Assembly: GCA_964016885.1 (NCBI GenBank)
Contig: OZ024740.1
Coordinates: 439,580,001 to 439,644,000 of the forward strand
Direction of reading: 5' to 3'
DNA from: Eledone cirrhosa
Lineage: Eukaryota
Length of the DNA stretch: 64,000 bases
Position numbers and translations under genes: made by a program. The notes beneath the pieces are model-generated. The model made no database searches, was not told where the DNA came from, and worked only from the letters and a program-made list of their open reading frames with translations. Each line of letters opens with the position of its first letter. The stretch's first letter is position 1. Shown piece after piece: positions 5,301 through 61,731 of the stretch.

Positions 5301-5349
<49 letters not shown>
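5301..5349. repeat. (ATT)n microsatellite
   Basis: Pure ATT triplet run. Confidence 0.97.
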
Positions 5350-10879: not shown

Positions 10880-13800
10880 CAGCTGCATTTATCTTGCTTT
10901 ATGTTCATACGAGTTATCACCAAGTCACAACCATTGACCTCAAGAGACTACAAGGTCCGCCATGTTCAAGAAAGAACATACATACTCACACATGCATCTT
11001 TAGTGTTTAGACTTGTGATGTACTTATATTGACAGAATCTTCCTTAGTATATGGGCAGTTCCCATTAGTACTATCTTTTGTATTTCTCCTATACGCGGGT
11101 TTCCTGGGATTTGCGATAAGTAATCATTAGACCCCTTAGGTATCATTCCCAGAGCGCCTACAACCACTGGTATTGTTTTAGTTCTCAATTTCCACATTTT
11201 TCCAATTTCTATCTCCAGGCCCTTATACTTGCTCAATTTTTCAAATGTTTTTATAGATACATTCTTGTCTATTGGATCGGACATATCAATTAGCAGGCAT
11301 ACCCTCTTTTTAAAGTCCTTCAATATTATATCAGGTCTATTTGCATCTATTTTTCGGTCTGTTTGGATGCTAAAGTTCCACAAGATTGAGATGTGATCTT
11401 TTTCAAGTATGGGAGGTGGTTTATGCTCCCACCAATTCTTTTGATGGGGCATGTCAAAATGCTTCCACATTATCCAATGTATGTATTGTGCAGCTCTGTC
11501 ATGCCTGTTTAGGTATTCGGTTGGAGCTATAGGACTGCACATTGAAATTATATGGTCAATGGTCTCTGGTTGTTTTTTGCATACACGGCATAATGGGCTG
11601 CATCCATTTTTTATTATGTTGGCTTGGTAATTTTTTGTTGGCAGACACTGTTCTTGTGCTAATATAATCAGTCCTTCAGTCTCCGATTTCAGTCCAGAGG
11701 ATGCCAACCACTGATGGGTTAAAGTTTTGTCAACATCAGCATTGTTAGCTCGTTCTGGATATTTTCCATACAGAGGCTTTTCTTGCCATTTCTTAGCCAG
11801 TTTCTGTAGCAGTTCTTTCTTTGCAGTTACTTTTACCTGCTTTGCTTTTTCTGTGTTTTCGATTTCAGCAGTAAATTGGACTTCTGAAATTTGTAGTCCA
11901 TTACTGTATCTTTGTGCATCTTTTGTAATGGAATATGATCTTTTGATGCTTTCGTGTTTCAAAACGAGTTTGATCATCCAATCATGTGATTCCCTTAGAT
12001 ATGTAGATAATCCAATTGTTGCAGTTTTCAACGCAATGTCTAACTGGATTAACCCACGTCCTCCTTCTTTCCTAGGGAGATATACTTTATCTGTATCTGC
12101 CTTAGGGTGATGCATTCTGTGCATGGTTAACAATTTTCTAATTTTTGTATCGAGCCTACGGATCTCTGTGCTTGACCAGTTGAGGACATTGTAACTGTAG
12201 GTTACTACTGGTATGGCAAGCGTGTTTATGGCATCGATCCTATTCCTTGCATTCAATTCCGTTCTTAAGATTGCTCTTACTCTGAAGTAACATTCCTTCC
12301 TTATCCTTTCCCTCATTGTCGAGTGCTTGATTCCGTCTCCTTCACAAACACCTAGATATTTGTAAGTTTTTTCTTGATCAAGTTCTCTTATCAGGTTCCC
12401 CCGATCAAGATTAATGTCTGAACACTTCAGCAGCTTTCCTCTGGTGAACGTTGCTTTGGCGCATTTATCTAGTCCCAACTCCATTTTAATGTCATCACTG
12501 AACTGCTCCACAGTGGATAATAGCCCTTGCAATTGTTCATCATTTTTTGCAAATAGTTTCAGGTCATCCATGTAGAACAAGTGATTAATGGTTTTGTCAT
12601 AGACTTTATATCCATGTTTGCATCATTGAAAATTTTACTTAATGGATAAGTGCGATGCAGAATAAAAGCGGTGATAAAGAGTCACCCTGAAAAATTCCAC
12701 AATTAATATTAACTTCTCCAGCTTCCAGTGATTTTGTTTCACTATTCAAAAGGAGTGTCGTTTTCCATGTCTTCATACTGAATAACAAAAACCTCCTGAC
12801 AACGGGGGATATTTTGAAAATCTCTAAACATTTTTCAATCCAACTGTGTGGCAAACTATCGAATGCTTTTTTATAATCTATCCAAGCAATTGGTAGACTT
12901 TTGTGTCTATTATGACAATCTCCCAGTATCATTTTGTTAACCAAAAGCTGATCCTTACAGCCATATGAGCCTCGTTTACACCCTTTCTGCTCAATGGGAA
13001 ATAGGTCATTTGTTATCAGGTGGTCATATGTATATTCAGTTAGGACTGATGTTAACATTTTATACATTGTGGTCAAGCAAGTTATCGGTCTGTAATTTTT
13101 GGGATTGTTTGTCTCATCATTCTTCGGAAGCAGGAATGTAATGCCGTTAACTAGCCATGATGGTATCTTTTCTGGCTCCTTAACTATTTCATTGTAAAGT
13201 TGGGCTAACAGCTCATGAAACTCTGTGAAGGCATTTATCCAAACATTTTGTATTTTGTCTTTTCATGGGGATTTCCATTTACTGGTTTTTCTTAGAGCCA
13301 AACGCAATGTTCAACTGTTATATTTTCTCATATTTGTTCCTCAAGGTGAGCTGTATCTTTCATTTGTCTGTCTATCCATGGGGCATGTATATTATGAACT
13401 TTTTCTTCGGCCCAGATATTTTCTTAGAAATCTTGCACTTCCTCCTTGGGTGGTATTGATTTAGCAGTTATTGTTGACTTACCAATTTTTCTGTAGAAGT
13501 TTCTTTTGGTTTGTTTTGAACATATTATTGTCCTTATAGAATCTAGATCGTTTTTCAAAGCGCCTTATACGAGCAGCGTCGGCCGACACTTTTTGCTTGA
13601 TTATTTCTATCAGCATGCCTATGTCACTTGTTGGTTTTATACTGTATTTTCTTTTCAATTTTCTAAAGTTAGTTTGTTTAACATGTTCACTTACTTTATA
13701 GTTTTTTAAAATTTCTATGTCAGATCGGAGAAGGTTTATTTGGCGATTGATGTTCTCTTGCCAAGTAGATTTCTTCTGGGAATTCCTTTGTTTTTTCATC

Positions 13801-14913
13801 TTCACTCCACATAAGTGAGTGGTGACCTTAGCCGATGCATAATAGAGATGATTTAAATCAGTAATGTATAGTTTGTTTGTGATGATAATGTTTTTCATAA
13901 TTATGTTAGTCTTGTGTATTATCTTTTGGTTCTGTTTGGAGTTCTGGATCGTAGGGAGGGTGTCTCGTTCCCCCATGTCAGATTCTTTCATTTTCATCCA
14001 TTCGATCATAATTTCATCCTTCAAGTTCGCAAGTTCATTCTCATTCATTTCTTTATCATTTACGATCCCATTGTTTTCATTTGGAGTTTCATCTTGAGCA
14101 TGCACTCCCTCCACTTTTTCGATCCTTTCTTTAATTTGTTCTGTTGTCAGTGATTCCGCCCCAACCCTGGGATTCGAAGTGTTACAATTTACCTCGTTTT
14201 CACTGACACATGTTTCATTTTCCCTTCGCTGACTTTGTGCTAATACCTTGATCTGATCAATTTCTATATCAGTTAGAAACTTTTTTTTACAATATTTCTT
14301 CGTATATTGGCTAGTTTGTTACTGTCAATATTGCCTCTGTTTTCGTGATGTTTCTTTTTCCAGTTGATATATGTCTGTTCTGTATTCGATGTATTTGATG
14401 GGAAGTACATGGCAGTGTAGAAAGCCTCAAGGACTTCTTCATTATCTTCCCTTGACCATTTTTCTCTCTTTTTCTTTGGATTTCGTGGTGGTGAGCATGG
14501 AGGGCCAACAGTAGGAGTATTCCGGTTATGGGAGATCTCCAGCTCCGAAGTGATGCGAAGGTTTGAACCATTAGCTGATTTTTCGACCCCAGTCTGGTTC
14601 CTCTCTGAGAGACGCGGCCCTATTTTACCCGGGTGACGGCCGATCCTGTATGAGATTTTATCATTAGACATTTACTTTATTTTGTCGCGTTTTATCCTTA
14701 TCCGCCAAGGGGTAATCATTTCGTGTTACCACTTCTAGAACGAGTGTCAACCAAGACTAGAGGGGTCGTTCTCCCCTAGAGACACGGCTATTCCCCGCCG
14801 GCCGCCATCCCGGTATTTCTTGGTCACGGGGTTTTCTTTTTTTGTTGTGTTTTTAAATTGTTATTATCATGAGTGGTTCCTTAATGTGAGCATTGCGCGG
14901 CTTAAGAATGAAA
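10880..14913 (-). mobile_element. R4/Dong-like LINE, family Dong-2, near full length
   Basis: Single disrupted ORF from ATG 14671 to stop 11024; structured 5' leader; (TAA)n tail. Confidence 0.9.
11024..14671 (-). pseudogene. RT-RLE polyprotein, disrupted
   Basis: Fragments 14273-14671, 13479-14114, 12639-13076 ([10 protein letters not shown]) and 11024-12580 (YMDD, CRVC..H..C, RHD, NRPDI..IDMS). Confidence 0.88.
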
Positions 14914-20710: not shown

Positions 20711-20945
20711 TTATTATTATTATTATTATTATTATTATTGGCCACCTACGTAGTAAATCGTATCATTGTGAGCTCCGCAAAGGTTTGTTATTTCCGTTTG
20801 TTAAAAATTGTCATTTATGGAAAATGTTATTGTTAACTGTTTATAAGCGCACATACATTATTTTCCGAAAAGGACACCCAAAAAGATTGGGGCCTTGTGC
20901 CCAAAATTTAAACTTTTATTATTATCAAAATTTATTTGAAAAAAA

Positions 20946-22943
20946 ATGGCTAATTCCCCTCTGCACCAAGCAGCTGAAAGCCTTCCTCACAAAATAACAC
21001 CTCACACCGACACCACCATTGTAAATGTTACTACATTTTCCAACACAAAAAAAAATATAAGCAGTAGCAATATTCTAAATTTGTCTCAGGCAGACATTCA
21101 TTTCCCGCCATTACCAATGACTGCAGGTGTTAAAGCCTCCACCACCACCACCACCGCGACAACCACCACCCCCATCGCCACCGCGACAACAGAAACAAAA
21201 GAAGAAAAAAATAAATTAACTCGTGATGTCGAAATGAAATCAAGCAAAATGGACTCTTCCCCACCAAAGACGACTGACGTCACCACAACCACAACTGAAA
21301 CTAAAATTAATATTCACACAAATAACGATAGCAACAACAACAACAATGACATTATAAAACCGACCCTCAGTTTCGCCAGAGTAGCAAAACAGTTCGAAGC
21401 ATTTACGGTAACTCAGGAGGATTTAGAAAATGCCAAACAAATGGTAAAGAAAGATGGGCACAGGGTCAGCCTCACCCCACCCCCCACCCAATAAAATGGA
21501 GCATCGGCGCCTATGCACCGTGTCGTATAGAACAATAAATGTAAAATCGCGCCGAGTGGAACGGGCATCCGAGTCCCAAATCCAAAAAGCTTTGGGACAT
21601 GTGTGGGCAAGAAAAACCTACATCAGACGTGGGAAAAAGTATGGAACCGTGGACGTGTTCTTTGAAACACCAGAGGAGGCTTGAGAACACTCCATGGCCC
21701 CATTAAGAAGTGACGACTTCACACTCGTCCCAAGCTATTGTGGCCAGAGACTCGTAAAGATCAGGGTGACCCACGTTCCACCGGCCATCGAAATTCCCTG
21801 GCTAATAGCGGCCGTCCTCGCCGTCATCGAAGCCAACACGAAAATAATAGCAATAGCAAAAGAAAAGCAGGAGAACTGGTCCGGATCTGGGATGGAGCTC
21901 CTGATCCAAGCGGACCAAAAAAGCATTGAGGAGATCCCAGAGGTAATAGACCTCACTGACGGCAGCCACCTCACGGTAATTGTCGAGGGCAGAAGACCTA
22001 GGTGTGTCGTTTGTGGTGAAGGAACCCACCTAAGGGCTTTCTGCCCTCAGGCTAAAAGGTTGAGGCCACCTCTCCTACCCACCCCAGTGACACAACCATC
22101 AACACCACCAGTAGCAGAGATGGCAGCAACAACTGTAGCAGCAACAACAGAAGCAACTATAACAGCAACAATCCCAGCAACAGTAGCAAAACCAACACTA
22201 CCACCACCACCAGCAAAACCAACACCACCACCACCCAACGCTTCAGAAGTAGCACCAGCGCCTACACCATACACCACGCCACAACCAAAACTAACGCCTG
22301 TGGAGGATTTTCCACTCCCCGGCCTATCACAACTGGAGACAGATTGTGATGACGAGGAGTGGGAAACGATATCCGGAAAAAAAAAAGAAACCAAAAAAGA
22401 AAAAATTCTCTTCCTTCCCCCTCCAAAAACAAAATACAGAGGGAAACGAATAAACTAAGAAACAAAAAAGTTAGGACAGATATGCCACCATCCACACCAG
22501 CATCACCAACCCCATCAACCCAAACACCAACACCATCACCATCATTAACTCTAACACCACCATCACCTACACCACAAAAGTCACCAAAATGCGAAACAGA
22601 AACAAACCCACAACAAACGCAAACAAAACAAAACTACCAAAACGATACACACTACACAGCATTAAATTTGAACAACAAGCAATTATTACTCTACATCCAA
22701 CACAATACCAGCATCACAGAAAAAGACTACACAACAACCCCAAAATTCACACCACCTCCACACATACAAATCACTCGCATCACACAGAAAACGTACATGA
22801 CACTAAAACAAAAGTTCCCCAAAGACATCGGAGACTTCCGACAAGCACTCTCCAGGAGGATTTATAAGGACATCCTTCCTGAGGAGGCCACAAGCAGTGA
22901 AAAGGATGGAAAAACCGTCCTTCCCCTACGAGAAGTAAGGTAA
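20946..22943 (+). pseudogene. ORF1 (CCHC knuckle), with frameshifts and a stop
   Basis: Fragments 20946-21494, 21454-21684, 21694-22458 and 22359-22943. Confidence 0.82.
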
Positions 22944-22977
22944 GTGGTCTTTCCCATCTTTTCCACTTCTTTTCAAC

Positions 22978-25900
22978 ATGACCTCACTCAGAATAGGCAG
23001 CATAAATGCGCGTGGCTTGGGGTCGTCATGGAAGCAGGGCCACCTGCTCAACGACCTCAGGTCACTAAACATAGATGTAGTGGCCATCAGCGAGACCAGA
23101 ATCTCCGAAGCACAGGCTTTCGCACCGATCTTCGGCGGCTACGATGTGTACGCATCTCCCAGCCGTCCGGGATCGGGGGGAGGAGTTGCTGTGCTTTTTC
23201 GGAGACGTTTGGATCTCGCCATACGGGCCATCTTCCTGGACCCAGAAGGTAAGTTGGTGGTGCTGGACGTGACCAGCGGAGAAGGGCAAGCTTTCAGGTT
23301 AGTGGCCGTCTATGCCCCGACAGGAGCAGGGCGGCCTGATTTCTTCCGGCGTCTGGAGACCTTTCTTGGAACGTCCCGCTCTTTAGTGTTAGTGGGCGAC
23401 TGGAACGGGATCTTAGATGTACGCTGGGATTGTGTGGGATTAGTGGATAGGGAAGGAGGGTGCAAGAGTCTCACCAACTTTCTCAGACGTTTTGAACTGT
23501 CTGACAGGTACCGAATGGATTTCCCGAATGTACCAATGTGGACTTGGACAAATCGCATAGGGTCATCCAGATCATATCTAGATAGAGTATTTTGTAGGGA
23601 AATAGATAGGTCTAGCATAGGCTGTCCACAATTCAAGATAGTCAGCTACACGGACCACAAATTCGTGATCTGTGTGCTTGACTTAGATAGGCTTCATAGG
23701 CGAGGACCCGGCTACTGGAAGCTAAACGCGTCCTTACCAGCGCGCAAGGCCTACAGAGACCGGATTAGCGAACTAGTTAAGCGGGCGTTGACGGGTGCCA
23801 TCGTCAATAACAAGTGGTGGTTTGCTCTGAAAAGAGCAATTAGAATAGAGTCCATTAGGTTTAGTAAGACTTTAGCAATAGAGAAAAATAGAGCAGAGGG
23901 AGAACTAGTTAGAAAATTAGATGAGGCGCTTAGCAAAGGCTTCGCGACCGACGTACTTGCGGCGAAATTGGCCCTTGACCAATTCTTCAATGCAAAGCAC
24001 GAAGGCTGCGTTGTCAGAGCTAGGGTGCGTACTCTCAGACACGAGGGGACGAAAGCCATTCAATGGGCCCGAGTGGCGGAGGCGCGTCGTGGCAACAAAG
24101 CCACGATCCGGTCTTAGGTGGACCACGACGGGCGCATGCTACTCGATCCCGGGCAAATGTGTGAAGCTTTTCAGCGACACTTCGCTCAACTGTTCGGGGG
24201 CAGTGGCGGGCCGGATCGAGGGATGGACTTTAGTGTCTACCTCGACGGACTGCCGCGGCTTTCGGCCACTGAGGCGGAGTGTTGCGAAAAGCCGATAACA
24301 ACCGCTGAAGTACGGGATGCAATGACTAGTTGCACAAGGGGTAAATCGCCTGGTTTGGATGGTCTGCCCTATGAACTTTACGTACAAATGCCAAACTTGT
24401 TCGGAGGCCTCTTGGCGGACGTCTACTGCAACTGGCAACAGAACGGGAGAATTCCCAGCTCTGTGAGCCGAGGAGCGGTGGCGCTGCTGAGAAAGGATCC
24501 GAACAAGGGGGATAACATAGATAATTTTAGGCCCATAACTCTGCTAAACACAGAGTTCAAGATTTTGGCCAAGGTGCTAGCAAAGAGGTTGGCGCTTGTC
24601 GTTGGTGGTCTGGTGGGAGAGGCACAGACATGCGCCATTCCCGACAGATCCATCCACGACAACCTCCACCTCATGCGATACATCGTAGAGAGGGTAGCTA
24701 GGGAACCTGGCACGGGTGGGTCTTTGATCAATTTAGATCAGTCGAAAGCCTTCGATAGGGTCGACCATCGTTACCTAGAGGCAGTCCTGGGGGCGGCTGG
24801 CTTTGGGCCCTTCTTCAGAGGCTGGATCGCTGTCATGCACAGCAACATCTGCTCTGTAGTGAGAGTGAACGGTCACCTTTCGGAACCGTTCAACATCATG
24901 CGCTCGGTCCGCCAAGGATGTCCCCTCTTGTCTCTATTGTACGTATTGACTCTCGAGCCATTACTGCACAAACGGGAGACGTTGAGGGGGATCCCGCGCG
25001 AACTAGGATGCGGAAAATCCGTGTCAGCATATGCGGACGATGTCACCGTAGTGGTGTCGAACGCCAAACACATCGAGGCGATCGGCACTACACTAAGAGA
25101 ATACGAAGCGGTGACAGGAGCAATGATCAAACAGCAAAGGTCAGTGCGCCTGCAGCTCGGCACCTGGAGAGGCAGGTCCATGCCGTCCAACAGCGTCGTC
25201 GGGCGCTGGACAGACGGACCGGTTAAATTGCTAGGGGTCTGGTTCGGTCCAGACCTCCAGACGGACAAAAACTGGGACGAGGTGACGAGCAGGGTGGCTT
25301 CTCTCACCCAGAAATGGGCGGAGAAGAAGCTATCCCTGAAAGGTCGAGCGGAGGTGGCTAACGCGTACATCGCGTCCGTCATCTACTACCGCCTGACCGT
25401 CGTACCTTGTCCTAAGCCCCGCCTGTCTGCGCTGGAGCGTTTGATCTTTCGCTTCTTGTGGAAGGGACGCGCTCCGATGGTCAGGCGGTCCATCTGCTAT
25501 CAACACCCGCTACGTGGAGGGCTGGGCATGCCGTGGCTAATGATGCGCAGACACGCGCTCAGGCTACGACATCTCCACCTCTTCCTCGACGGTGATCAGG
25601 TGTGGTCGCAGTTTGCTAGACACGTTTTTCCCCAGCTCGTCTCCTTGACGGAGCTGCAGTCCTGGGTCAAGCGAAGACCGAGAGGGAGCGCTTGGAGACT
25701 GGAATGTCTTCAGGCGCTCACAGCCCTCGACCAATCGGGCAATGTGATCGGTGGAAACTCCACCTTGGCGTTCTATAGGGGATTAGTGGAGGGGAAGAGC
25801 GACGACGTACTTCGAGAAACTCTAGGCGTCGACGAAAATCAACTAGCCAATCTCTTCGGAATGACTTTCGGGCCGGGGCCTATGGACAACTTCCAGAAAT

Positions 25901-26397
25901 CCCTGGCCTGGCAGTGCTACCGGGGTGCTTTGCCAATTCGGGATAAACTTTACAGGCATGGAGGTGCCGTCAGCCGGGCATGTCCGAAATGCGCACAGGG
26001 CGACGAAACCGTCCTGCACGCACTCGTCCAGTGTCCGAGCATTGCTGACTTGTGGGTTTATGTCGAACACCTGCTGTCACGTGTAGGACGGATCCAGCTA
26101 TCAGCTGAGTCCATCGTGAGGATTGCCCCGCCCACTTCCTTTAGCCGTGAAGGGCAGGCAGTTTTTATCTGTCTGGTGGCCATGGCGAAAGAGATATTAT
26201 GGTGGACACGTTTGAAAGGGCTGAAGACGAGCACTTACCTCTTCGGTGATGCCCTGATTAACTTTTTCAAATTTCATCTGAAAAGGAAAATCAGGGTAGA
26301 GAGGGAAGTGCTCTCTTCCCAACATTTTGTTGAAAGATGGGTGAGAGAAGCAAGTATGGCCCGAATGAATGGGCCTTCTCTGAGTATGTGTCTGTAA
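22978..26397 (+). pseudogene. ORF2 APE-RT-zinc finger, single in-frame TAG at 24115-24117
   Basis: 379 aa + 759 aa in the same frame; paralogues have TTG at this codon; YADD; CPKC..H..QC. Confidence 0.92.
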
Positions 26398-26880
26398 ATT
26401 AAAGGTGGAAAACTGGGAGAGGGCACTTGCCCTGGTGGTCAGGGCCACTGTGGTCTTTTAATGGGCTTTCTCCACAAATGTCCCTCGGAAGTCTCCCCCC
26501 TATTGGGGAATTTTTCTTTGTTATTTTATTTCACCCTCTGTTTTTTTACACGCAGAAATGCCCATTTGTACCGTCCTGTATTGTCCTGTACTGTCCTTAA
26601 TGTCTACTTTATGTAAACCCTTGTAGTTAATAAAGAAAACATTATTATTATTATTATTATTATTGAATGCTATGGTTGACGGAGGCTCGGCTCTGTAAGG
26701 TACTGTCAATTTTGAACGCTTTAACAATTGTAAATTGTTTAAAACTTAGACCAACTTGTAGACAAAAACACCCTCCTCCTCGTGAGAGGGGTCTTTCTGC
26801 CCGTTATTTGGCCCTTTGGGGTTAAATAACTGCTTATTGGGGTTTTGTACCCAATATTTATTTTAAACAAAAAAGTCAAC

Positions 26881-28968
26881 ATGGCTACGAAAAAGAATTT
26901 GCATAGGTCACTCCCATTCATTCCGTCTTCTTCTTCCTCAATCATCACTACAGCAGAGAGAAGATTGTCTCTCTCCCTCCCTTCTTTAAATGTGTCTCTC
27001 TCCCTCCCTTCTCTTTCGCAAGCGACGAAAGAAAAGAAAAGTCTCGTGCAAAGCGTGCAAGGTTTCTCCACGACGACGACGACAGCGACGAAACAGGTGT
27101 GCGGGAAATACGAAAACCCAGTTCATTCGTCTGACGTCAGGAATAATAGCAGTAGCAGCCGTAATAACAACAGCAACAGTGACAATGAAAACAACAGTAG
27201 CAGCCGCAACAGCATCACCAGCAGCATAAACAACAACAGCATTAGCAGCAGCAACACCAACAACAACCACAGCAACAGCGGCGAAGGCAGTAGTCGTAGT
27301 ACCTGCAGCAACAACAAAAGCTCTGACGACAACAACAGCAGCAAAGAAAAACCAATCTCATTTGCAGGTATTGCGAAAAACTTGGAAACAATCCTCATAA
27401 CAAATGAGGAGTTAGAGGAAGCGAAGAAGATGGTGACAAAGAATGGACACCGAGCAATCTGCAAGGCAGCGGAAACATTTTTCGAAACCCAAGAGCACTG
27501 TAAGGTCACGTACCGTACAGTAAGTACAAAATCCCGTAGGGTGGAAAGAGCCACAGAGGCCCAAATACAAAAAGCCTTGGGTTCTGTGTGGCAGCGGAAA
27601 ACGCACATCACCCGAGGCAAAACATATGCCACCGTAGACGTACTTTTTGCCACACCCCAGGAGGCAAAGGCCCAATCCGTAGTGACCCTAAGGAGCGAGG
27701 AAATGGTGTTCGTGCCATCCTACTGCGGGCAAAAAATTGTGAGGGTCAAACTGACCCACGTCCCCCCCGGAATGGCCCCTTCTTGGCTGGCCGCGTCTGT
27801 CCTCGTCGGAATCGAGGACAAAACAACTGTACTGCAAGTACAGAAAAAAGTAAGAGAAGATTGGGTCGGCACCTCCATTGAGATGCTAATCCAAACCAAC
27901 CAGGAGTGCATCGAAGCTATCCCGGATGTGATAGACTTCGATAACGGCACTCAACTGCCCATAAGTGTTGAGGGCAAACGCCCGAAATGCTTTCGCTGTG
28001 GATCGAAGACTCACCTCAGGGCCTTCTGCAACGAGAAGACCCTGAGAAAGGAGAAAACACCCCTCCTTCCGAATCCGGCTCCACGGCTACCAGCAACAGG
28101 ACAAGCGGCAACCAGGAACGATAGGTCCGTGGCACCCATACCAACGCCACGGAAATCAAAAACAGCAGCAGCAGTGGAAATATTAACAACAACAACAGCA
28201 ATACCAAATGCAGCTGCAACAGAGACTCCAGTGCAAACATCACCAACAACAACAAGTGAAAGAGTGGAGCTGGTACCCCTCCCCGACCTCACAGAATCAG
28301 ACATGGAGTGTGAGGTGGGAGAGGGATGGCAAAAGGTCGTAAGAAGGCACAAACGCAGAAGCAGCGCATCGTCGCCTTTGAAAAGGGAGGAAAGAAATGA
28401 GAAAAGGGTAAAGTCTACTGCAAAGAGACCCACAGCAACAACACCACCAACACCATCACCACCCACACTAGCACCACCATCACCACCGGCGACAACCCCA
28501 CCGCCAACAACACCTTCAACACCACCACCACAAGCACCAACATCGCAAACACAACAACAAAACACACACACCCAGCAACAACGACAAGAAAATAGCAGAA
28601 CCACACCCCACCCCCAGAAAAACAAATGCACGGCAATAAATACAAACAACAAGAAACTAATGACTTACATAATTGAACACACAGACATTTCACAACAGGA
28701 CTACATAATACCAGCACCAATCAAAACGCCAACTAACATAAGACTGCTAAAAATAGCACAGAAACAATACACAAACATTAAAACGAAATTCCCCAACGCA
28801 GTTGGTGATTTCAGGGACCTAGGAGGAACCATCAATCGAAGAGTATATTCAGACATTCTGTTAGAAGAGCCGACGACCAGCCGAAGGGACGATTCAACGG
28901 TCCCTTCACCAGACGATCAAGTGAAAAGGGATGTAAAAACCATCCCTCCTCTACCAAAAGTACGGTAA
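26881..28968 (+). CDS. Intact LINE ORF1 protein (about 695 aa): Ser/Asn-rich N-terminus, conserved core, CCHC knuckle, Pro/Thr-rich linker
   Basis: Open frame 26845-28968, first ATG at 26881; CFRCGSKTHLRAFC. Confidence 0.88.
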   Translation: MATKKNLHRSLPFIPSSSSSIITTAERRLSLSLPSLNVSLSLPSLSQATKEKKSLVQSVQGFSTTTTTATKQVCGKYENPVHSSDVRNNSSSSRNNNSNSDNENNSSSRNSITSSINNNSISSSNTNNNHSNSGEGSSRSTCSNNKSSDDNNSSKEKPISFAGIAKNLETILITNEELEEAKKMVTKNGHRAICKAAETFFETQEHCKVTYRTVSTKSRRVERATEAQIQKALGSVWQRKTHITRGKTYATVDVLFATPQEAKAQSVVTLRSEEMVFVPSYCGQKIVRVKLTHVPPGMAPSWLAASVLVGIEDKTTVLQVQKKVREDWVGTSIEMLIQTNQECIEAIPDVIDFDNGTQLPISVEGKRPKCFRCGSKTHLRAFCNEKTLRKEKTPLLPNPAPRLPATGQAATRNDRSVAPIPTPRKSKTAAAVEILTTTTAIPNAAATETPVQTSPTTTSERVELVPLPDLTESDMECEVGEGWQKVVRRHKRRSSASSPLKREERNEKRVKSTAKRPTATTPPTPSPPTLAPPSPPATTPPPTTPSTPPPQAPTSQTQQQNTHTQQQRQENSRTTPHPQKNKCTAINTNNKKLMTYIIEHTDISQQDYIIPAPIKTPTNIRLLKIAQKQYTNIKTKFPNAVGDFRDLGGTINRRVYSDILLEEPTTSRRDDSTVPSPDDQVKRDVKTIPPLPKVR

Positions 28969-29003
28969 GTGGTCTTTCCCATCTTTTCCACTCTATTTTA
29001 AAC

Positions 29004-32000
29004 ATGACCTCACTCAGAATAGGCAGCATAAATGCGCGTGGCTTGGGGTCGTCATGGAAGCAGGGTCACCTGCTCAACGACCTCAGGTCACTAAACATAG
29101 ATGTAGTGGCCATCAGCGAGACCAGAATCTCCGAAGCACGGGCCTTCGCACCGATCTTCGGCGGCTACGATGTGTACGCATCTCCCAGCCGTCCTGGATC
29201 GGGTGGAGGAGTTGCTGTGCTTTTTCGGAGAGGTTTGGATCTCTCCATACGGGCCATCTTCCTGGACCCAGAGGGTAAGCTGGTGGTGCTGGACGTGACC
29301 AGCGGAGACGGGCAAGCTTTCAGGCTAGTAGCCGTCTATGCCCCGACAGGAGCAGGGCGGCCTGATTTCTTCCGGCGTCTGGAGACCTTTCTTGGAACGT
29401 CCCGCTCTTTAGTGTTAGTGGGCGACTGGAACGGGATCTTAGATGCACGCTGGGACTGTGTGGGATTAGCGGATAGGGGTGGAGGGTGCAAGAGCCTCAC
29501 CAACCTGCTCAGGCGTTTTGAACTGTCTGACAGGTACCGATTGGATTTCCCGAATGTGCCAATGTGGACTTGGACAAATCGCATAAGGTCATCTAGATCA
29601 TATCTAGATAGAGTATTTTGTAGGGAAATAGATAGGTCTAGCATAGGCTGTCCACAATTCAAGATAGTCAGCTACACGGACCACAAATTCGTAATCTGTG
29701 TGCTTGACTTAGATAGGCTTCATAGACGAGGACCCGGCTACTGGAAGCTAAACGCGTCCTTACCAGCGCCAAGGCCTACAGAGACCGGATTAGCGAACTA
29801 GTTAAGCGGGCGTTGACGGGGGCCATCGTCAACAACAAGTGGTGGTTTGCTCTGAAAAGAGCGATTAGAATAGAATCGATTAGGTTTAGTAAGGCTTTAG
29901 CAATAGAGAAAAATAGAGCAGAGGGAGAACTAGTTAGAAAATTAGACGAGGCGCTTAGCAAAGGCATTGCGACCGACGTGCTTGCGGCGAAATTGGCCCT
30001 TGACCAATTCTTCAATGCAAAGCACGAAGGCTGCGTTGTCAGAGAAAAGGTGCGTGCTCTCAGACACGAGGGGACGAAAACCGTTCAATGGGCCCGAGTG
30101 GCGGAGGCGCGTCGTGGCAACAAAGCCACGATCCGGTCTTTGGTGGACCACGACGGGCGCATGCTACTCGATCCCGGGCAAATGTGTGAAGCTTTTCAGC
30201 GACACTTCGCTCAGCTGTTCGGGGGCAGCGGTGGGCCGGGTAGAGGTATGGACTTTAGTGTCTACCTCGACGGACTGCCGCGGCTCTCGGCCACTGAGGC
30301 GAGGTGTTGCGACAAGCCGATAACAGCCGCTGAAGTAAGGGAGGCAATGACTGGCTGCACAAGGGGTAAATCGCCTGGTTTGGATGGTCTGCCCTATGAA
30401 CTTTACGTACAGATGCCAGACTTGTTCGGAGTCCTCTTGGCGGACGTCTACTCCAACTGGCAACAGAACGGTAGAATTTCCAGTTCTGTGAGCCGAGGAG
30501 CGGTGGCACTGCTGAGAAAGGATCCGAACAAGGGGGATAACATAGATAATTTCCGGCCCATAACTGTGCTAAACACAGAGTTCAAGATTTTGGCCAAGGT
30601 GCTAGCAAAGAGGTTGGCGCTTGTCGTTGGTGGTCTGGTGGGAGAGGCGCAGACATGCGCCATTCCCGACAGATCCATCCACGACAACCTCCACCTCATG
30701 CGATACATCATAGAGAGGGTAGCTAAGGAACCTGGCACGGGTGGGTCCTTGATCAATTTAGATCAGTCGAAAGCTTTCGATAGGGTCGACCATCGTTACC
30801 TAGCGGCAGTCCTGAGGGCGGCTGGCTTTGGGCCCGTATTCAGAGGCTGGATCGCTGCCATGCACAGCGACATCTGCTCTGTGGTGAGAGTGAACGGTCA
30901 CCTGTCGGAACCGTTCAACATCATGCGCTCGGTCCGCCAAGGATGTCCCCTCTCGTCCCTCCTGTACGTATTGACTCTCGAGCCATCACTGCACAAACTG
31001 GAGACGTTGAGGGGAGTCCTGCGCGAACTAGGATGCGGAAAATCCGTGTCAGCATATGCGGACGATGTCACCGTAGTGGTGTCGAACGCCAAACACATCG
31101 AGGCGATCGGCACTACACTAAGAGAATACGAAGCGGTGACAGGAGCAATGATCAACCAGGAAAAGTCAGTGGGCCTGCAGCTCGGCACCTGGAGAGGCAG
31201 GTCCATGCCGTCCAACAGCGTCGTCGGACGCTGGACGGACGGACCGGTTAAATTGCTAGGGGTCTGGTTCGGTCCGGACCTCCAGACGGACAAAAACTGG
31301 GACGAGGTGACGAGCAGGGTGGCTTCTCTCACCCAGAAATGGGCGGAGAAGAAGCTATCCCTGAAAGGTCGAGCGGAGGTGGCTAACGCGTACATCGCGT
31401 CTGTCATCTGCTACCGCCTGACCGTCGTACCTTGTTCTAAGCCTCGCCTGACTGCGCTGGAGCGTTTGATCTTTCGCTTTTTGTGGAAGGGACGTGCTCC
31501 GATGGTCAGGCGGTCCATCTGTTGTCAACACCCGCTACGTGGAGGGCTGGGCATGCCGTGGCTGATGATGCGCAGGCACGCGCTCAGGCTACGACATCTC
31601 CACCTCTTCCTCGACGGTGATCAGGTGTGGTCGCAGTTTGCTCGACACGTATTTCCCCAGCTCGTTTCCTTGACGGAGCTGCAGTCCTGGGTCAAGCGAA
31701 GACCGAGAGGGAGCGCCTGGAGAATGGAATGTCTTCAGGCGCTCACAGCCCTCGACCAATCGGGCAATGTGATCGGTGGAAACTCCACCTCGGCGTTCTA
31801 TAGAGGATTAGTGGAGGGGAAGAGCGACGACGTACTTGGGGAAACTCTAGGCGTCGACGAAAATCAACTAGCCAATCTCTTCGGAAGAACTTTCGGGCCA
31901 GGGCCTATGGACAACTTCCAGAAATCTCTGGCCTGGCAGTGCTACCGAGGAGCCTTGCCAGTTCGGGATAAACTCTACAGGCATGGAGGTGCCGTTAGCC

Positions 32001-32422
32001 GGGCATGTCCGAGATGCGCGCAGGGCGACGAAACCGTCCTGCACGCACTCGTCCAGTGTCCGAAAATTGCTGACTTGTGGGTTTATGTCGAACACCTGCT
32101 GTCGCGTTTAGGACGGATCCGGCTATCATCTGAGTCAATCGTGAGGATTGCCCCGCCCTCCTCCTTTAGCCGGGAAGGGCAGGCAGTTTTTATCTGTCTG
32201 GTGGCCATGGCGAAAGAGATAGTATGGTGGACACGTTTGAAAGGGCTGAAGACGAGCACTTACCTCTTCGGTGATGCTCTGATTGACTTTTTCAAATTTC
32301 ATTTGAAAAGGAAAATCAGAGTAGAGAGGGAAGTGCTCTCTTCCCAGCATTTTGTTGAAAGATGGGTGAGAGAAGCAAGAATGGCCCGAGTGAATGGGCC
32401 TACTCTGAGCATATATCTGTAA
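29004..32422 (+). pseudogene. ORF2 APE-RT-zinc finger, single 1-nt frameshift near 29770
   Basis: 265 aa + 869 aa; GCGCCAAGG here versus GCGCGCAAGG in the paralogue. Confidence 0.92.
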
Positions 32423-32672
32423 ATTAAAGGTGGAAAACTGGGAGAGGGCACTTGCCTTGGTGGTCAGGGTCATTGTGGCTTTTTACTGGGCTTTCTCCAC
32501 AAATGTCCCTCCGAAGTCTCCCCCGTATTGGGGAATTTTTCATTGTTATTTTTTGTTACATCCTCTGTTTTTGTTTTTTACATGCAGAAATTCCCATTTG
32601 TACCGTCCTGCATTGTCCTGCACTGTCCTTAATGTCTACTTTATGTAAACCCTTGTGGTTAATAAAGAAATC

Positions 32673-32699
32673 ATCATTATTATTATTATTATTATTATT
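32673..32699. repeat. (ATT)n tract, tail-to-tail junction
   Basis: Triplet run. Confidence 0.93.
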
Positions 32700-35600
32700 G
32701 TTCTTGGAGTCTCAGTCATTGATGTTATTTAACTGGAAAGTTTGTTGAAATGAATATCAAGCCGCTACCTGCAGCCTCAGATATTCAGGACATATCGGAG
32801 GGTTCTTGCTGTTCCCAGCAAGCATGCCTTTCGAAGTGTTCCAAAAAGAGGGGCTGGACTAATTTTCTTTAACCATCCTTAGAGACTCTTTGAAATAGTA
32901 CCTAGTGCGCCTATGACAATCGGGACCACTTGACTTCATAGCAGTTCCAAATCCTTTGTACCTCCCACTTTAAGTCCTGGTATGAGTTAATTTTCTCCCT
33001 CTCCCTTTCTTGCACTCTCGTGTCAAATGGGCAGGCTACATCTACAATCAGGCACGATCTTTTTTCCTTGTTGTCCAAAACCACCAGGTCAGGCCTATTG
33101 TGTTCCAGTTTCTTATCCGTCTGTATCCTAAAATCCCATAGCACCTTCACCTTATCGTTTTCTATCACCGCCTCTGGCTTATGCTCACACCACTTCTCAG
33201 AATGTGGTAAATTGTTTACTTTGCATAGGTGCCAGTGGATCACCCTGCCCATCACATCATGTCTCAAGCCTTTATAGTGAGTCTGGGCTAGGCTTTTACA
33301 CTCGGATACAATGTGAGCCACAGTATCCTCTCTCTCTCCACAGATCCTACACAGTGGGCTAGCCTCCTCCTTGTAAATATGGTGTTTCACCCACTTCGTT
33401 TTGAGTGCCTGCTCTTGCGCAGCCATTATCATTCCTTCTGTAGTCTTTTTAAGGTCTCCTCTTTTTAACCAGTTCCATGTCTGTGGATCACTAAATTCAA
33501 TTTTCTCAAAGAAGGTACTATGAAGGGATTTTTCATGAAGGTTGCTTTTCTCCATGTGAACACAGTCCTCTATGCTGATAAGACCTCTTCCACCTTCACA
33601 TCTCCTTAAGTAGAGTCTATCGACATCGCTCCTCTTGTGGAACATGTTGTAGATAGTCAATAGCTTCCTAGTCTTCCTATCCATTTCTTTTTGTTCAGCA
33701 ACATTCCATTTCAGAATTTCCGCACTGTACCTAATAATAGACACAGCTCGGGAATTCACTGCACTTATGACATTCCTACTATTTAGATGTGATTTTAATA
33801 CGCTCCTTACTCTCCTAATGTACTCAGATCTTATCAATTCCTTCATTTTTTTTTGTTCTTGATCTGCCTCCAGAACACCTAAATATTTGTATCCTTCAGT
33901 GTCAATTTCCTTTATCATCTCACCTGTTGGTACCTGGATTCCGTTGCTTCTGCTCAATTTACTCCTCTTTATCACTAGGACCCCACACTTATTAATACCA
34001 AATTGCATACATATATCATTGCTGAAAATACGGACAGTGTCAACAAGCACATCCAACTCCTTCTCACTCTTCCCAAAGAGTTTAAGATCGTCAATGTAGA
34101 AGAGGTGGTTGATAATAAGCTCTCTCTTTCCCAACTTGTATCCTGCTCTCACTTTTCGCAGTATAATGGTCAGGGATATCAGGGCAAGGACAAACAACAG
34201 AGGGGACAAACTATCTCCCTGGAATATACCTCTCTTGATCTTCACGCCTCCCAATGATGTCCACCCGATGTTAACTCTGTTTCCCAGGACTTCATACTTT
34301 TGCTCAACAACTGTCTGATGTTATCTGCCACCCTGAAGATCTCTAGGGTTTTGGTTATCCAAGAATGAGGTACCATGTCGAATGCCATTTTGTATTCTAT
34401 CCATCCCATGGCAAGAACTGTGTGTTTCCTCTTGCAATTCCTCATTACCATCTTATCAATAAGTAACTGGTCCTTTGTACCACGGGACTTCTTTCGGCAT
34501 CCTTTCTGTTCGTCCGGTAACAAGTTCTTTATGTGGAGGTGATGGTAGATTTCCTCAGACACAATGCTTGTTAATAGTTTCCACATTACGGACAGACATG
34601 TGATAGGTCTATAGTTGGTAATATCATTACCCTTGATTTGGTCTTTCATTACCAGAACTGTGGTACCTTTTGTCAACCACTCTGGTACCTCACCTGACAT
34701 CAAGCAGTCATTGAACATGGTTGTCAGTTTCGGGTGGAGGGATGTTGTATTTTTAATCCAATACCCCTGCACACTCTCTGGGCCTGGTGATTTCCAGTTG
34801 GTTAGTGTTTTGGCCTGCCCTTTAAGAGTTTCAACAGTGATACTCAAATCAGTTTGTTGGTGTGCTTGTTCACTAATCTCCTTTTGTACTGTCTCAATCC
34901 ACACTGCCTGATCATTATGTTCAACATCATGCTCCCATATACCTTTGCAGAATGTCTTAGTCTGTTCCGCCTCAGGGATCAAGTCATTGCCTCTATCTTT
35001 CCCTTCAAGCTGTCCGAGCAACATCTTCTGGTTGTTGTCAAACATGCGGTTCTGTCTATACTGACTGACTCTGCTCTCATACCACCTAATCTTTGCATAG
35101 TTTGCTATAATGCGTTGCTTCAGTTCCTCTATGATGATATTTAGCTTTTTCCTCTTAGTTTTGTACTTTATTTCCAGTCTATTTTTAGTGTCTATGTTTT
35201 GTAGTGTCCCATTGAGTAGGGACTCAAGCTTTCCAATGTCATTTCTCATTTCCTTGATTTGACCATTCAGTCGTTTCTTCCACCAAGGGTCTGATCTTTC
35301 TTGTTTGCTGTTTCCTCTCGATTTTATGCCAAGTAATTTGCTCACCGCGTTTGCTGTTGCTTTGAGGATATTGTTGCATTGGTGAAGGTTCCTCGCCTCA
35401 AGGTATGGGGTGACTTTGTTTACTTTAGCTGTTGTTTCTTTTAACTTTTTCCTGTCTACAAATCTTAGGTTCATAGGTTTCCCACTATCATTGTTCATTT
35501 CATCTACCACTAAGTTTAATATATCAACCAAATCTTGTTCTAGCCCGTCAGCATTCATTTCCTCTCAATGGCTGTATCTTTGTTCCAGATGTTATTTATT

Positions 35601-49841: not shown

Positions 49842-49990
49842 GCCATGCTTTGCAGCACAGTTACGTCCCTTTACAGACTGAGTTCAAAACCCGCCGAGGT
49901 TAACTTTGCCTTTCATCCTTAAGGGGTCGATAAAATAAAGTACCAGTAATACACTGGATATTTGCTGGCCTTGTGCCAAAAGTAGAAACA
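49842..49990 (+). mobile_element. tRNA-derived SINE, 5' truncated
   Basis: B-box GAGTTCAAAAC, body, (ATT)n tail at 49991-50006. Confidence 0.85.
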
Positions 49991-50007
49991 ATTATTATTA
50001 TTATTAC

Positions 50008-50182
50008 TTGGCAGTATCGGTAGAGGGTCAGACGCCATGCTTTCCAGCATAGTTACCTCCCTTTACGATCTGAGTTCAAATCGCGCCGAGGTTGACTTTG
50101 CCTTTCATCCTTACGGGGTCGATAAAATAAAGTACCAGTAATGCACTGGGTAATTGCTGGCCTTGTGCCTAAAGTAGAAACA
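50008..50182 (+). mobile_element. tRNA-derived SINE
   Basis: A-box TGGCAGTATCGG, B-box GAGTTCAAATC, (ATT)n tail at 50183-50206; resembles the Octopus SINE by recall. Confidence 0.87.
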
Positions 50183-50206
50183 ATTATTATTATTATTATT
50201 ATTATT

Positions 50207-55995: not shown

Positions 55996-56013
55996 ATTAT
56001 TATTATTATTATT

Positions 56014-56195
56014 GGTGGATTGGCAGTATCGGTAGAGGGTCGGACGCCATGCTTTGCAGCAGAGTTACGGCCCTTTATGGTCTGTGTTCAAATCCTGCCG
56101 AGTTTACCTTTGCCTTTCATCCTTACGAGGTCGATAAAATAAAGTACCAGTAATGCACTGGGATAATTGCTGGCCTTGTGCCAAAAGTAGAAACA
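56014..56195 (+). mobile_element. tRNA-derived SINE, apparently full length
   Basis: Starts GGTGGATTGGCAGTATCGG, B-box GTTCAAATCC, (ATT)n on both sides. Confidence 0.88.
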
Positions 56196-56219
56196 ATTAT
56201 TATTATTATTAATATTATT

Positions 56220-56577
56220 GTTCTTTGAGTTTCAGTCATTGATGTTATTTAACTGGAAAGTTTGTTGAAATGAATATCAAGCCACTACCTTCAGCCTCAG
56301 ATATTCAGGACGTATCGGAGGGTTCTTGCTGTTCCCAGCAAGCATGCCTTTTGAAGTGTTCAAAAAGCGGGGCGGGGCCAATTTTCTTTAACCATCCCCC
56401 ATCCCTGGAAAGTTTTTGAGATAGTACCTAGTGCGCCTATGACAATCGGGACCACTTTGACTTCATGGCAGTTCCAAATCCTTTTTACCTCCCACTTTAA
56501 GTCCTGGTATCGGTTAATTTTCTCTCTCTCCTTCTCTTGCACTCTCGTGTCGAATGGGCAGGCCACATCCACAATCA
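56220..56577 (-). mobile_element. Dong-3 3' fragment
   Basis: Matches 40059-40410; ORF 56360-56629 is the RLE C-terminus. Confidence 0.88.
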
Positions 56578-56589
56578 TCACAATCCTTT

Positions 56590-59500
56590 TGACAAGATCG
56601 CGCAAATAGAGTTTCCCTGAAACCTCCACCCGATTTTTTCAAGGACAGCAGCTACGGACGGTGACCTACCGCACCGTAAGCAAAATCTCACATCGAGTGG
56701 AGGGAGCCACGGAGACTCAAATCCAAAAGGCCTTGGGATGCGTCTGGGCACGCACAACCCACATCACCCGAGGCAGAAAGTACGCCACAGTAGATGTACT
56801 TTTAGCCACCCCCCAGGAAGCAAAGTCTCACTCTTTGGAAACTCTAAAGATTGAGGAGATAGTCTTGGTGCCCTCCTACTGCGGGCAGAAAATTGTGAGG
56901 GTCAAAGTGACCCAGGTCCCACTCGATGTGCCCATACTTTGGCTGGCCGCGTCTGTCCTTGCTGGAATCGAGAACAGGACGACCATGCTGCAAGTAGAAA
57001 AAAATAGGGAGAGAGAACTGGTCAGGTATAGGCATGCAAATGTTTATACAAACTGACCAGGAATGTATCGACGCTATCCCCGATATCATAGACATCGAGG
57101 AAGGACTCCAACTCCCTATAAGTGTAGAAGGAAGACGGCCAAAATGTTATCTCTGTGGGTCGAAGGGTCACCTCAAGGCCTTTTGCCCGCAGTAGACAGC
57201 GAAGAAGGTCCCTCTCCTTCCAATACCTGGTCCGCTGCTACCAAGAGCAGGGCAGGCAACAAACGAAAAAGCCCCTTCCACGGTGATTAGGAGGGCAACG
57301 TCCGTAGCACCCGTACCAAGTCCACGGACAACTAAAGCAGCATCATCAGTGGCGGCAACACCAATAGCTACATTTGAAGTAGCTACACCAGCAACACAAT
57401 TGCCGAAGAGGGCTCCACTACCACCAACAGCCGTGGAGCACATACCACTCCCAGACGCCACAGAATCCGACATGGAGTTTGAGGCAGGAGTGAAGTGGCA
57501 AACGGTCTGCCACAAAACAACAAAAAAGAAAAAAAACCCTTAGATTCACCCTCCAAAAGCGAAGGCATACAAAGAAGGGTAAAGGCAGCAAGGAAACTTG
57601 CAGCAACACCACCACCATCACCACCAAAAACACCAACAACGCAAACACAACAAGACACACACACCAAACAGCAACAAGAAGAAAACAGCAACAAATCACC
57701 CCTCCCCCAAAAAGTACACAGCCATAAACATGGTAAAAAAAGAACTCATACAATATATAAAGCAGCACACAGACATCACAGAAAAAAACTACTACACCCC
57801 ACCAACACCAAGAACTCTACCGACAAATATAAGCATCATCGAAATGTCAATAGAACAGTACAAACCTTTAAAACAAAAATTCCCCAATGTAGTTGGAGAC
57901 TTCAGAGGGTCGGTTACCAAGAGGATATACACTGACATCCTCTTGGAAACACCCATGACCAGCGAAAGGGACGGTTCTACTGTCCCTTCACCGCACGAAC
58001 AAGGTAAGTGACCCTTTCTCACTTGCTCCGTTTCTCATCCAACATGGCCGTACTCAGAATAGGCAGTATAAATGCACGTGGCCTGGGGTCATCTTGGAAG
58101 CAGGGTCACCTGCTCAACGACCTCAGGTCACTAAACATAGATGTGGTGGCCATCAGTGAAACCAGAATCTCCGAAGCACAAGCCTTAGCACCGATCTTCG
58201 GCGGCTACGATGTATACGAATCTCCCAGCTGTCCAGGATCGGGGGGAGGCGTCGCCGCCCTTTTTCGGAGAGGCTTGGATCTCGCGATACGGCCATCTTC
58301 CTAGACCCAGAAGGTAAGTCGGTGGTACTGGACGTGACTGGTAGCGAAGGCAATGTTTTCAGGCTAGTAGCCGTCTACGCCCCAACAGGGGCAGAACGGC
58401 CAGATTTCTTCAGACATCTAGAGACCTTTCTTGAAACGTCCCGCTCTTTAGTGTTAGTGGGCGACTGGAACGGTATCTTGGATGCACGCTGGGATCGTCT
58501 GGGGCTAGTGGATAGGGGAGGAGGGTGCAATAGCTCACCAACCTGATCAGATGTTTTGAATTGTCTGACAGGTATCGACTGGATCACCCGAATGTGCCAA
58601 TGTGGACATGGACAGACCGCATCGGGTCATCCAGATCGTATCTCGATAGGGTATTCTGCAGAGAACTAGATAAGGCTAGTATAAGTTGTCCACAATTTAA
58701 AATAGTTGATACACAGACCACAAATTTGTGATCTGTGAGATCGACATAGACAGACTTCATAGACAAGGGCCTGGTTACAGGAAGCTGAACGCGACTTTCC
58801 CGGTGCGCAAAGCCTAGAGAGACCGGATTAGCGTATTAGTTAAGCGGGCGTTGACGGGAGCGATCTTCAACAACAGGTGGTGGTTCGCCCTGAAAAGGGC
58901 AATTAACGTAGAGTCAATTAGGTTTAGCAAAGGAGTAGTGATAGAGGAAAATAGAGTAGAGGGAGAGCTAGTCAGAAAGCTAGAAGAGGCATTTAGGACA
59001 GGCATCGCAACCGACGTGCTTGCGGCGAGATTGGCACTCGACCAATTCTTCAACGCAAAACACGAAGGCTGAGTTGTCAGAGCTAGAGCGCGTGCTCTGA
59101 AACACGAGGTGACAAAAGCCGTCCAATAGGCCCGGGTGGCAGAGGCGCGACGTGGCAACAAAGCCACAATTCGGTCTTTGTCTGACCAAAACGGGTGCGT
59201 GATGCTCGAACCCGAGCGTATGTGTGAAGCGTTTCAGCAGAACTTTGCTGAACTGTTCGGGAGCGGCGGCGGCCCGGATCGGAGCATGGACTTCAGTGCA
59301 TACTTCGACGGACTGTCTCGGCTCTCGACGACCGCAGCACAGTGTTGCGAAAAGCCAATAACAGCCGGTGAAATACGGGAAGCGATGGGTAACTGCACAA
59401 GGAGTAAATCGCCAGGTTTGGATGGTCTGCCCTACGAGCTTTATGCATTTATGCCAGACTTGTTAGGTGGCCTCTTGGCAGACGTCTACTGCAACTGGCA

Positions 59501-61706: not shown

Positions 61707-61731
61707 ATTATTATTATTATTATTATTATTA

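Follow-up and report, generated by a model that had tools for sequence, protein, structure and literature searches.

The window (the whole 64-kb stretch of DNA that was analysed, G000:C1:439,580,001-439,644,000, from a genome of 3.0 Gb) contains seven ORF1/ORF2 boundaries of LINEs, all co-oriented, which belong to families A (two), B (one), C (three) and D (one). The LINE copies carry AATAAA and (ATT)n at the 3′ end, and at the 5′ end they mostly start right after (ATT)n. From 5300 to 62000 the LINEs lie head to tail within (ATT)n runs, an arrangement that was also seen in clusters elsewhere, for example at G000:C1:55.43-55.45 Mb; young copies of family B form arrays with a spacing of ~6 kb. 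Truncated LINE copies are found at 5344, 15460 and 38742, and the flanking 400 kb around the window holds just two additional ORF2 starts. Between 32700 and 43600, the minus strand carries several fragments of another LINE, which is unrelated and has a different reverse transcriptase (RT; ORFs 32911-35564), and pieces similar to it lie at 1031-2499, 11024-14318 and 63058-63681. A short repeat, possibly SINE-like, stands behind C-family 3′ ends at 49839-50207 and 55973-56220.

The single B copy of the window is a full-length element of a young subfamily (Table 1). Its ORF1 is intact and encodes a zinc knuckle (CX2CX4HX4C, 27988-28029), with zero Pfam families over the cut-off. Its ORF2, which has a frameshift near 29770 in this copy, matches PF03372, PF00078 and PF13966, and the Pfam search gave no match to RNase H. 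B shows an APE-RT-zinc finger ORF2, a separate ORF1 with a knuckle, a simple-repeat tail and 5′-truncated copies. We conclude that B is L1/Tx1-type by anatomy. The closest named match to the B ORF2 is an Argonauta hians protein (68%), which makes an octopod the likely host, and metagenome scans returned no relatives outside this genome. A further donor-like AAG/GTA occurs at 26698-26704, 33 nt into the 5′ UTR that B shares with family P, described below.

Table 1 Features of the B element and of related elements in the window
Feature	Position	Strand	Remark
Full-length family-B LINE, young subfamily	26666..32670	+	(ATT)n on both flanks
P-derived 5′ UTR and ORF1, to the last base before the putative P splice donor	26666..28921	+	
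Intact hybrid ORF1	26881..28968	+	terminus ..DDQ/VKRDVKTIPPLPKVR-stop
Chimeric junction AG/TG, P exon end to A sequence	28920..28923	+	2-nt AG in both parents
A-derived 43-nt ORF1 tail	28922..28964	+	42 nt of A plus one base at 28924-28930
Second splice-donor motif AG/GTAAGT, A's own	28963..28970	+	ORF1 stop TAA inside
B ORF1-ORF2 spacer, pyrimidine-rich	28965..29003	+	without AG up to the ORF2 ATG
A-derived ORF2 of B	29004..32422	+	AP endonuclease, reverse transcriptase, zf-RVT
AATAAA signal and (ATT)n tail of B	32661..32699	+	
Family-A element immediately upstream of B	20740..26645	+	3′ parent family
CAG of A (weak candidate cryptic acceptor) and 42-nt tail to the A donor	22895..22939	+	
Family-D ORF1 end and donor motif AAG/GTAAGT	57961..58009	+	relative of P, not the parent of B

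A splice-donor motif is kept at the end of ORF1

In nine divergent families, whose ORF2 starts are 59-89% identical, an AG/GTRAGT motif lies 28-46 nt before the ORF2 ATG. Within the window it stands at 7734, 16579, 22939, 46209, 52372 and 58003, and it was also found at other loci (L129, L185, L194, L195 and L234-L263). AG/GTRAGT matches the established U1-binding consensus of 5′ splice sites, and the chance expectation for GGTRAGT is ~0.0035 per 30 positions. We compiled a tblastn catalogue of ORF2 starts, at least 20 loci of which had been chosen beforehand for having the donor, and GGTAAG was present at most 70 nt upstream at 61 of its 67 sites; the six misses are two point mutants, one truncation, one edge artefact, one weak match and one family with GTGAGT. 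A pattern search that itself required the motif located 1,166 more places in families other than A and B, with AGGTAAGT 18-42 nt before ACCAACATGGC.

In families A, B, C2, G, H and I, ORF1 terminates within the motif itself, whereas D and C3 read it in a different frame and have ..GK-stop as their ORF1 terminus. Retention of the motif across frames, together with the A/G change at +3, fits selection on a U1-binding site rather than on the protein. Given its presence in nine divergent families and in two reading frames, we conclude that the AG/GTRAGT with which ORF1 closes probably is a genuine 5′ splice site, and we refer to it as the donor. The spacer between ORF1 and ORF2 is not itself an intron, since, although pyrimidine-rich, it has no AG common to the families. 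Candidate roles for a donor at this place are the production of an ORF1-only mRNA, protection by U1 from early polyadenylation, and control of ORF2 output.

The B junction is genuine and repeats the end of ORF1

The B junction reads CAAG/TGAA at 28921/28922. The counterpart site in A is CAG/TGA at 22897/22898, and in D the last exon base is 58003, with the cut at 58003/58004. From the junction, B runs for 43 nt, compared with 42 nt in A, to the second donor at 28964/28965, where ORF1 terminates in ..LPKVR-stop; the extra base lies within an AAAAGGG run. These sequences and positions are all as they had been quoted in a first-pass annotation of this DNA. The 42-nt tail of A shares homology with the final 43 nt of the P/D ORF1 (..SEKDGKTVLP.. 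in A, ..SERDGSTVPS.. in D), so that B has this segment twice, 43 nt out of register. The first-pass annotation had also proposed that the extra base restores the A reading frame. ORF1 does end on the second donor as that proposal states, but the base is dispensable for closing the frame: without it, 14 more codons lead to a TAA stop just before the second donor (read from L051).

A search for the ORF1 end of B followed by a base other than G gave 2,419 genomic matches, and all 100 among the matches listed are B. In a search with sequence across the junction, all 40 matches listed are ~100% identical, and contigs that span it were also present in two further runs, records 17 and 26. We conclude that the B junction is genuine and no assembly error, on the grounds of its copy number, the many contigs on which it is found, and halves that match two different existing families. 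The same junction thus recurs in multiple copies, a point on which the earlier proposal of a chimeric LINE depended, and B is not a single-copy assembly chimera.

The two halves of B derive from families P and A

The break in B had been assigned to the donor of family D. Because the ORF1s of B and D are just ~70% identical (835 nt aligned), we searched for the ORF1 end of B followed by a donor. This search gave family P, in which the ORF1 end of B continues into P's own GTAAG donor, in 72 exact copies, none of them in the window. All 20 P copies fetched first run from GTAAG into a D-like spacer, and most of them into a D-like ORF2. The GTAAGT donor at the P ORF1 end stands at the exact base of the B junction. 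The break is therefore exactly at the donor of the 5′ parent, as had been claimed, but that parent is P and not D.

With one A copy and two P copies as references, B is 76-95% (mostly 86-95%) identical to the P copies and 41-64% identical to A over the 2.25 kb 5′ of the junction, whereas over the 3.75 kb 3′ of the junction it is 93-97% identical to A and 72-89% identical to P. Informative sites along B show one single switch from P-like to A-like, and are overwhelmingly P-like before the junction. Separate ORF1 and ORF2 trees, which the first-pass annotation had called for, place B incongruently. In the ORF2 tree B lies among A, and a P+B clade is rejected by an AU test on 23 rows (p 4e-130; six long or truncated rows dropped, A and B thinned); in the ORF1 tree B stands with P. 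The ORF1-side AU test, which does not reject an A+B clade (p 0.385), is uninformative because the long branch of A can attach anywhere on the P/B star. The claim that the halves of B have different parents is thus borne out.

All 16 old B copies have two common alleles that are rare in P. In the first P sample, one of these alleles was absent and the other was present in one P copy; later P copies have one or both. A full-length P copy with an intact donor, L323 (G000:C28:5953036-5962535), has 20 of the 21 diagnostic alleles of old B. Among the P copies examined it is the closest relative of the 5′ founder of B, and a C element follows it. Given the alleles common to old B and the nested similarity of L323, the 5′ half of B came from inside P, one time. 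We conclude that B had a single origin and was then amplified. At L325 (585-6103) we observed a D/P/B triple mosaic, with an intact P donor and, close to it, the two B-type alleles.

Exact motifs number 2,419 in B, 2,015 in A and 72 in P. In samples picked by motif rather than at random, the median divergence from the group majority is 3.2% both in P (minimum 1.9) and in A; in B it is 3.4-3.5% among old copies, 2.3-2.8% among middle copies and 0.5-0.8% among young copies. As the low divergence of the young copies shows, B kept amplifying. Nearly all B copies have the extra base. The five without it are scattered over old and young haplotypes, and look like later deletions rather than a clear primary product. 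Conversely, the extra base is present in four of about 2,019 A copies; their haplotypes differ, and they look like independent slips.

B most likely arose from a read-through RNA, spliced from P into A

Starting from these parents, the single crossover and its position, the one origin and the later amplification, we propose that B arose by one splicing event of a P-to-A read-through RNA, followed by retrotransposition. We put the probability of this reading, which rests on sequence comparison, at roughly 0.68. LINEs ending in (ATT)n would insert in (ATT)n and so pile up head to tail, and a P transcript could then run past its own 3′ end into a downstream A. U1 would bind at the donor at the end of the P ORF1, and the spliceosome would take a cryptic acceptor, the CAG 42 nt before the A donor, which would remove the P ORF2 and most of the A ORF1. 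The spliced RNA would consist of the P promoter, a complete ORF1, and the ORF2 and 3′ UTR of A, and would thus be autonomous. A one-base slip at or soon after founding would have put the tail in the A frame, and the hybrid would then have outgrown its 5′ parent. P and A could have been joined either by cis read-through or by trans-splicing; both would fit B equally.

The co-oriented tandem substrate that the first-pass annotation had postulated does exist, in the form of P followed by A. At eight of 40 P loci (10 kb each), namely L032, L033, L035, L040, L283, L288, L294 and L301, an A element that starts at or near its 5′ end lies within about 400 nt downstream. In B the break coincides with the only strong donor, and on the A side it immediately follows an AG. 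By comparison, none of 74 ordinary out-of-register LINE junctions lies on a donor, and one of 52 clean ones is GT-AG compatible. Homologous exchange is disfavoured, since the join is 43 nt out of register despite the adjacent homology and despite P and A ORF2s that are ~80% alike.

The founder locus of B was not present among 63 of the 72 exact P sites, which were fetched over 10 kb (40), within cluster stretches (3) or as 1.1-kb pieces (20, three of them extended to 9.5 kb in a second fetch). The A copy immediately upstream of B in the window is not the founder. A P-then-A tandem at C2:46.72 Mb, in which A has the extra base, was rejected because its P has 0 of 28 B alleles. The composite L185/L186 was rejected as well: it has 3/5 and 5/11 rare alleles, is without the P 5′ end, and its join is single-copy. 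In this composite (L185:8937-10000 with L186:1-6053), a 5′-truncated P is joined inside ORF2 to a 5′-truncated old A.

The main rival is a join without splicing, made on the 2-nt AG microhomology, with the break falling on the donor by chance. A cDNA of A, with its priming site in the (ATT)n tail of a P already in place, might have been joined back by its 5′ end into that P, or a deletion or RT jump might have occurred between P and A in tandem. We consider this unlikely, yet it stays a real rival to splicing, given that the acceptor is weak, that 2-nt overlaps are ordinary and that the founder locus was not found. The CAG of A has 8/18 pyrimidines, ranks 28 of 59 YAG sites in the A 5′ part, and is preceded by four other AGs within 16 nt. 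At ordinary junctions, a microhomology of 2 nt is the commonest value (13/52), and 34 of the 52 have at least 2 nt. L039 and L186 each contain a join of P to A/B-type sequence at an unrelated place, the L186 join being single-copy among 40 scored of 1,780 candidates, and a donor-exact AG join to satellite DNA exists in family G (see below). The need for an intact ORF1 and ORF2 would restrict viable breaks to the neighbourhood of the junction, and heteroduplex and strand-switch routes are among those proposed for mouse L1 mosaics in the available text of PMC3600994. However, a coincidence is required. We roughly estimate that ~3 of ~100 viable positions, multiplied by the share of AG overlaps, would give ~1-2%, and no ordinary junction was on a donor. 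Because a chance join on the donor with an AG overlap would have a probability of only ~1-2%, splicing is strongly favoured if the donor is used. The prior for spliced inter-element retrocopies is low, as none was seen except B, whereas joins at the DNA level are common. The splicing origin suggested by the first-pass annotation accordingly stands as the most likely one, with the microhomology join beside it.

A two-step route is far less probable still. A template switch on the 5-nt AGTGA (GTA-AGTGA in P, AGC-AGTGA in A) would have produced two donors, and a 5-nt slippage would then have deleted the first GTAAG. This longer microhomology is present in P and A sequence, and exact 5-nt GTAAG deletions are known at the A-type donor (2/48). 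Nevertheless, the two-donor intermediate has 0 exact copies in the genome, three events would be needed as opposed to two, and P is without the perfect 5-nt tandem repeat that eases the deletion in A. Finally, an assembly chimera or a local tandem duplication inside one lineage would agree with the homology of the duplicated 43-nt segments, but its probability is negligible given 2,419 matches on many contigs, ~100% identity in the 40 listed matches across the junction, and halves that each match a different existing family.

Splicing-driven shuffling is not seen to recur

The first-pass annotation had gone further, in proposing that the polarised array keeps generating new ORF1/ORF2 combinations by splicing. 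This part is not supported: B had a single origin, and at six donors, searched with patterns that call for an exact exon end and overlook some junctions, a second spliced retrocopy was not encountered. The second donor of young B was joined to other sequence in 0/7, the donor of A and old B in 0/48 and, separately, in 0/9 after follow-up, and the C donor in 0/4. Three apparent joins of the A/old-B donor were rejected: one matched sequence that is not a LINE, one was a 24-nt fragment within a different repeat, and one was a micro-inversion. A micro-inversion ending at an A donor is present at L279:4680-4890. At the first donor of P/B, the 48 matches comprise 45 B variants and 3 local deletions, and the D donor pattern, which had no positive control, gave 0 matches. 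Joins of the donors of other families to the A acceptor were absent among 11 and 50 matches. We saw no ORF1-only spliced retrocopies, with the donor joined to the 3′ UTR, and no 3′-UTR acceptor common to all families. L247, a candidate ORF1 swap of family G, was rejected as an internal deletion.

The G donor was joined to other sequence in 1/12. At position 3853 of L274/L278 (G000:C5:21848335), a G-family ORF1 runs at its exact donor, with an AG overlap as in B, into a satellite array of over 16 kb, whose 21-nt unit ends in a pyrimidine-rich TAG. This join does not resemble a retrocopy, and suggests that a donor-exact AG join need not involve a spliced RNA that was retrotransposed.

Family D (window 56600-61710, L173) is also a mosaic. 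Its ORF1 is 57-80% identical to P, the first few hundred nt of its ORF2 are closer to A, and from about 450 nt after the donor the remainder of its ORF2 is 91-98% identical to P. The switch is in register, inside ORF2 and away from the donor, which is a result that the first-pass annotation had itself named as speaking against its proposal. We conclude that recurrent splicing-driven shuffling is not supported. The broader reading is that in these LINEs a functional 5′ splice site is maintained where ORF1 ends, as part of the life cycle, that where they stand head to tail in (ATT)n the spliceosome can graft a promoter and ORF1 onto the next ORF2, and that B was founded in this way and displaced P; we regard the chances for and against this combined reading as evenly balanced.

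Discussion

B is among the commonest mobile elements of this genome, with ~2,400 copies, and is a hybrid of two older LINE families. If the splicing origin is correct, B would be a new autonomous LINE, built by the spliceosome from two LINEs, which became very abundant and stayed active, and splicing would be a route by which ORF1 is exchanged between LINE families. The event is directly testable, because the genome still contains P, A and a nearly ancestral copy of P.

L1-clade and Tx1-type non-LTR retrotransposons include ones that target microsatellites. B is like the L1/Tx1 type in having two ORFs, a zinc-knuckle ORF1, an APE-RT-zf-RVT ORF2, a simple-repeat tail, and insertion in simple repeats. 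In the mostly open-access full texts searched, we came across neither a LINE with a 5′ splice site conserved where its ORF1 ends nor a LINE-LINE chimera made by splicing, and PMC5381506 has no passage on splicing or chimeras.

That LINE lineages exchange ORF1 and promoter is well documented. In the recombinant mouse L1 families Tf and Gf, a new active family combines the ORF1 of one lineage with the ORF2 of a second (PMC3600994). The routes proposed there are recombination of DNA, a heteroduplex formed where the element inserts, and strand switching by the RT, and splicing is unmentioned in the available text (PMC3600994). The outcome in B is similar, but its break is out of register, with a 43-nt offset and a duplicated segment, and lies on a donor. 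Family D, with its in-register crossover, resembles an ordinary recombinant of the Tf/Gf type.

SpIREs, as described in the accessible part of PMC5860796, are L1 copies spliced within one element, in which promoter or ORF1 function is lost and which are dead ends. B would share with them the retrotransposition of a spliced LINE RNA. However, B is not a SpIRE, since it is an inter-family join, has ~2,400 copies and kept amplifying.

In 5′ chimeras of mRNA and LINE-1, including RAP1GDS1-L1PA2, an exon is spliced in cis or in trans onto a LINE and brings a new promoter. According to the sections available, the junctions of these chimeras coincide precisely with donors, and an acceptor cannot always be recognised (10.1101/2025.02.02.635956). 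As far as these sections go, and unlike B, such chimeras contain host-gene exons, number one or two insertions each, and do not have ORF1 replaced.

The closest parallels are SVA_F1 (MAST2 exon 1) and pt_SVA_D6 (STK40 exon 1), non-autonomous elements of 84 and 94 copies that captured a host exon. In the available account, the exon was joined at its own donor to an acceptor in the retroelement, which gave a new 5′ end and promoter to a subfamily that was then amplified, and splicing was inferred from the position of the junction (PMC6139936). As in SVA_F1, the 5′ part of B ends exactly at the donor of the source exon, and a single origin was followed by amplification. In B, by contrast with the SVA_F1 described there, both partners are LINEs, a whole ORF1 was captured, both ORFs are encoded, and there are ~2,400 copies. 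Under the splicing origin that we favour, B would work like SVA_F1 and pt_SVA_D6 and like the exon/LINE-1 chimeras, as these are described in the available texts, while being a member of neither group.
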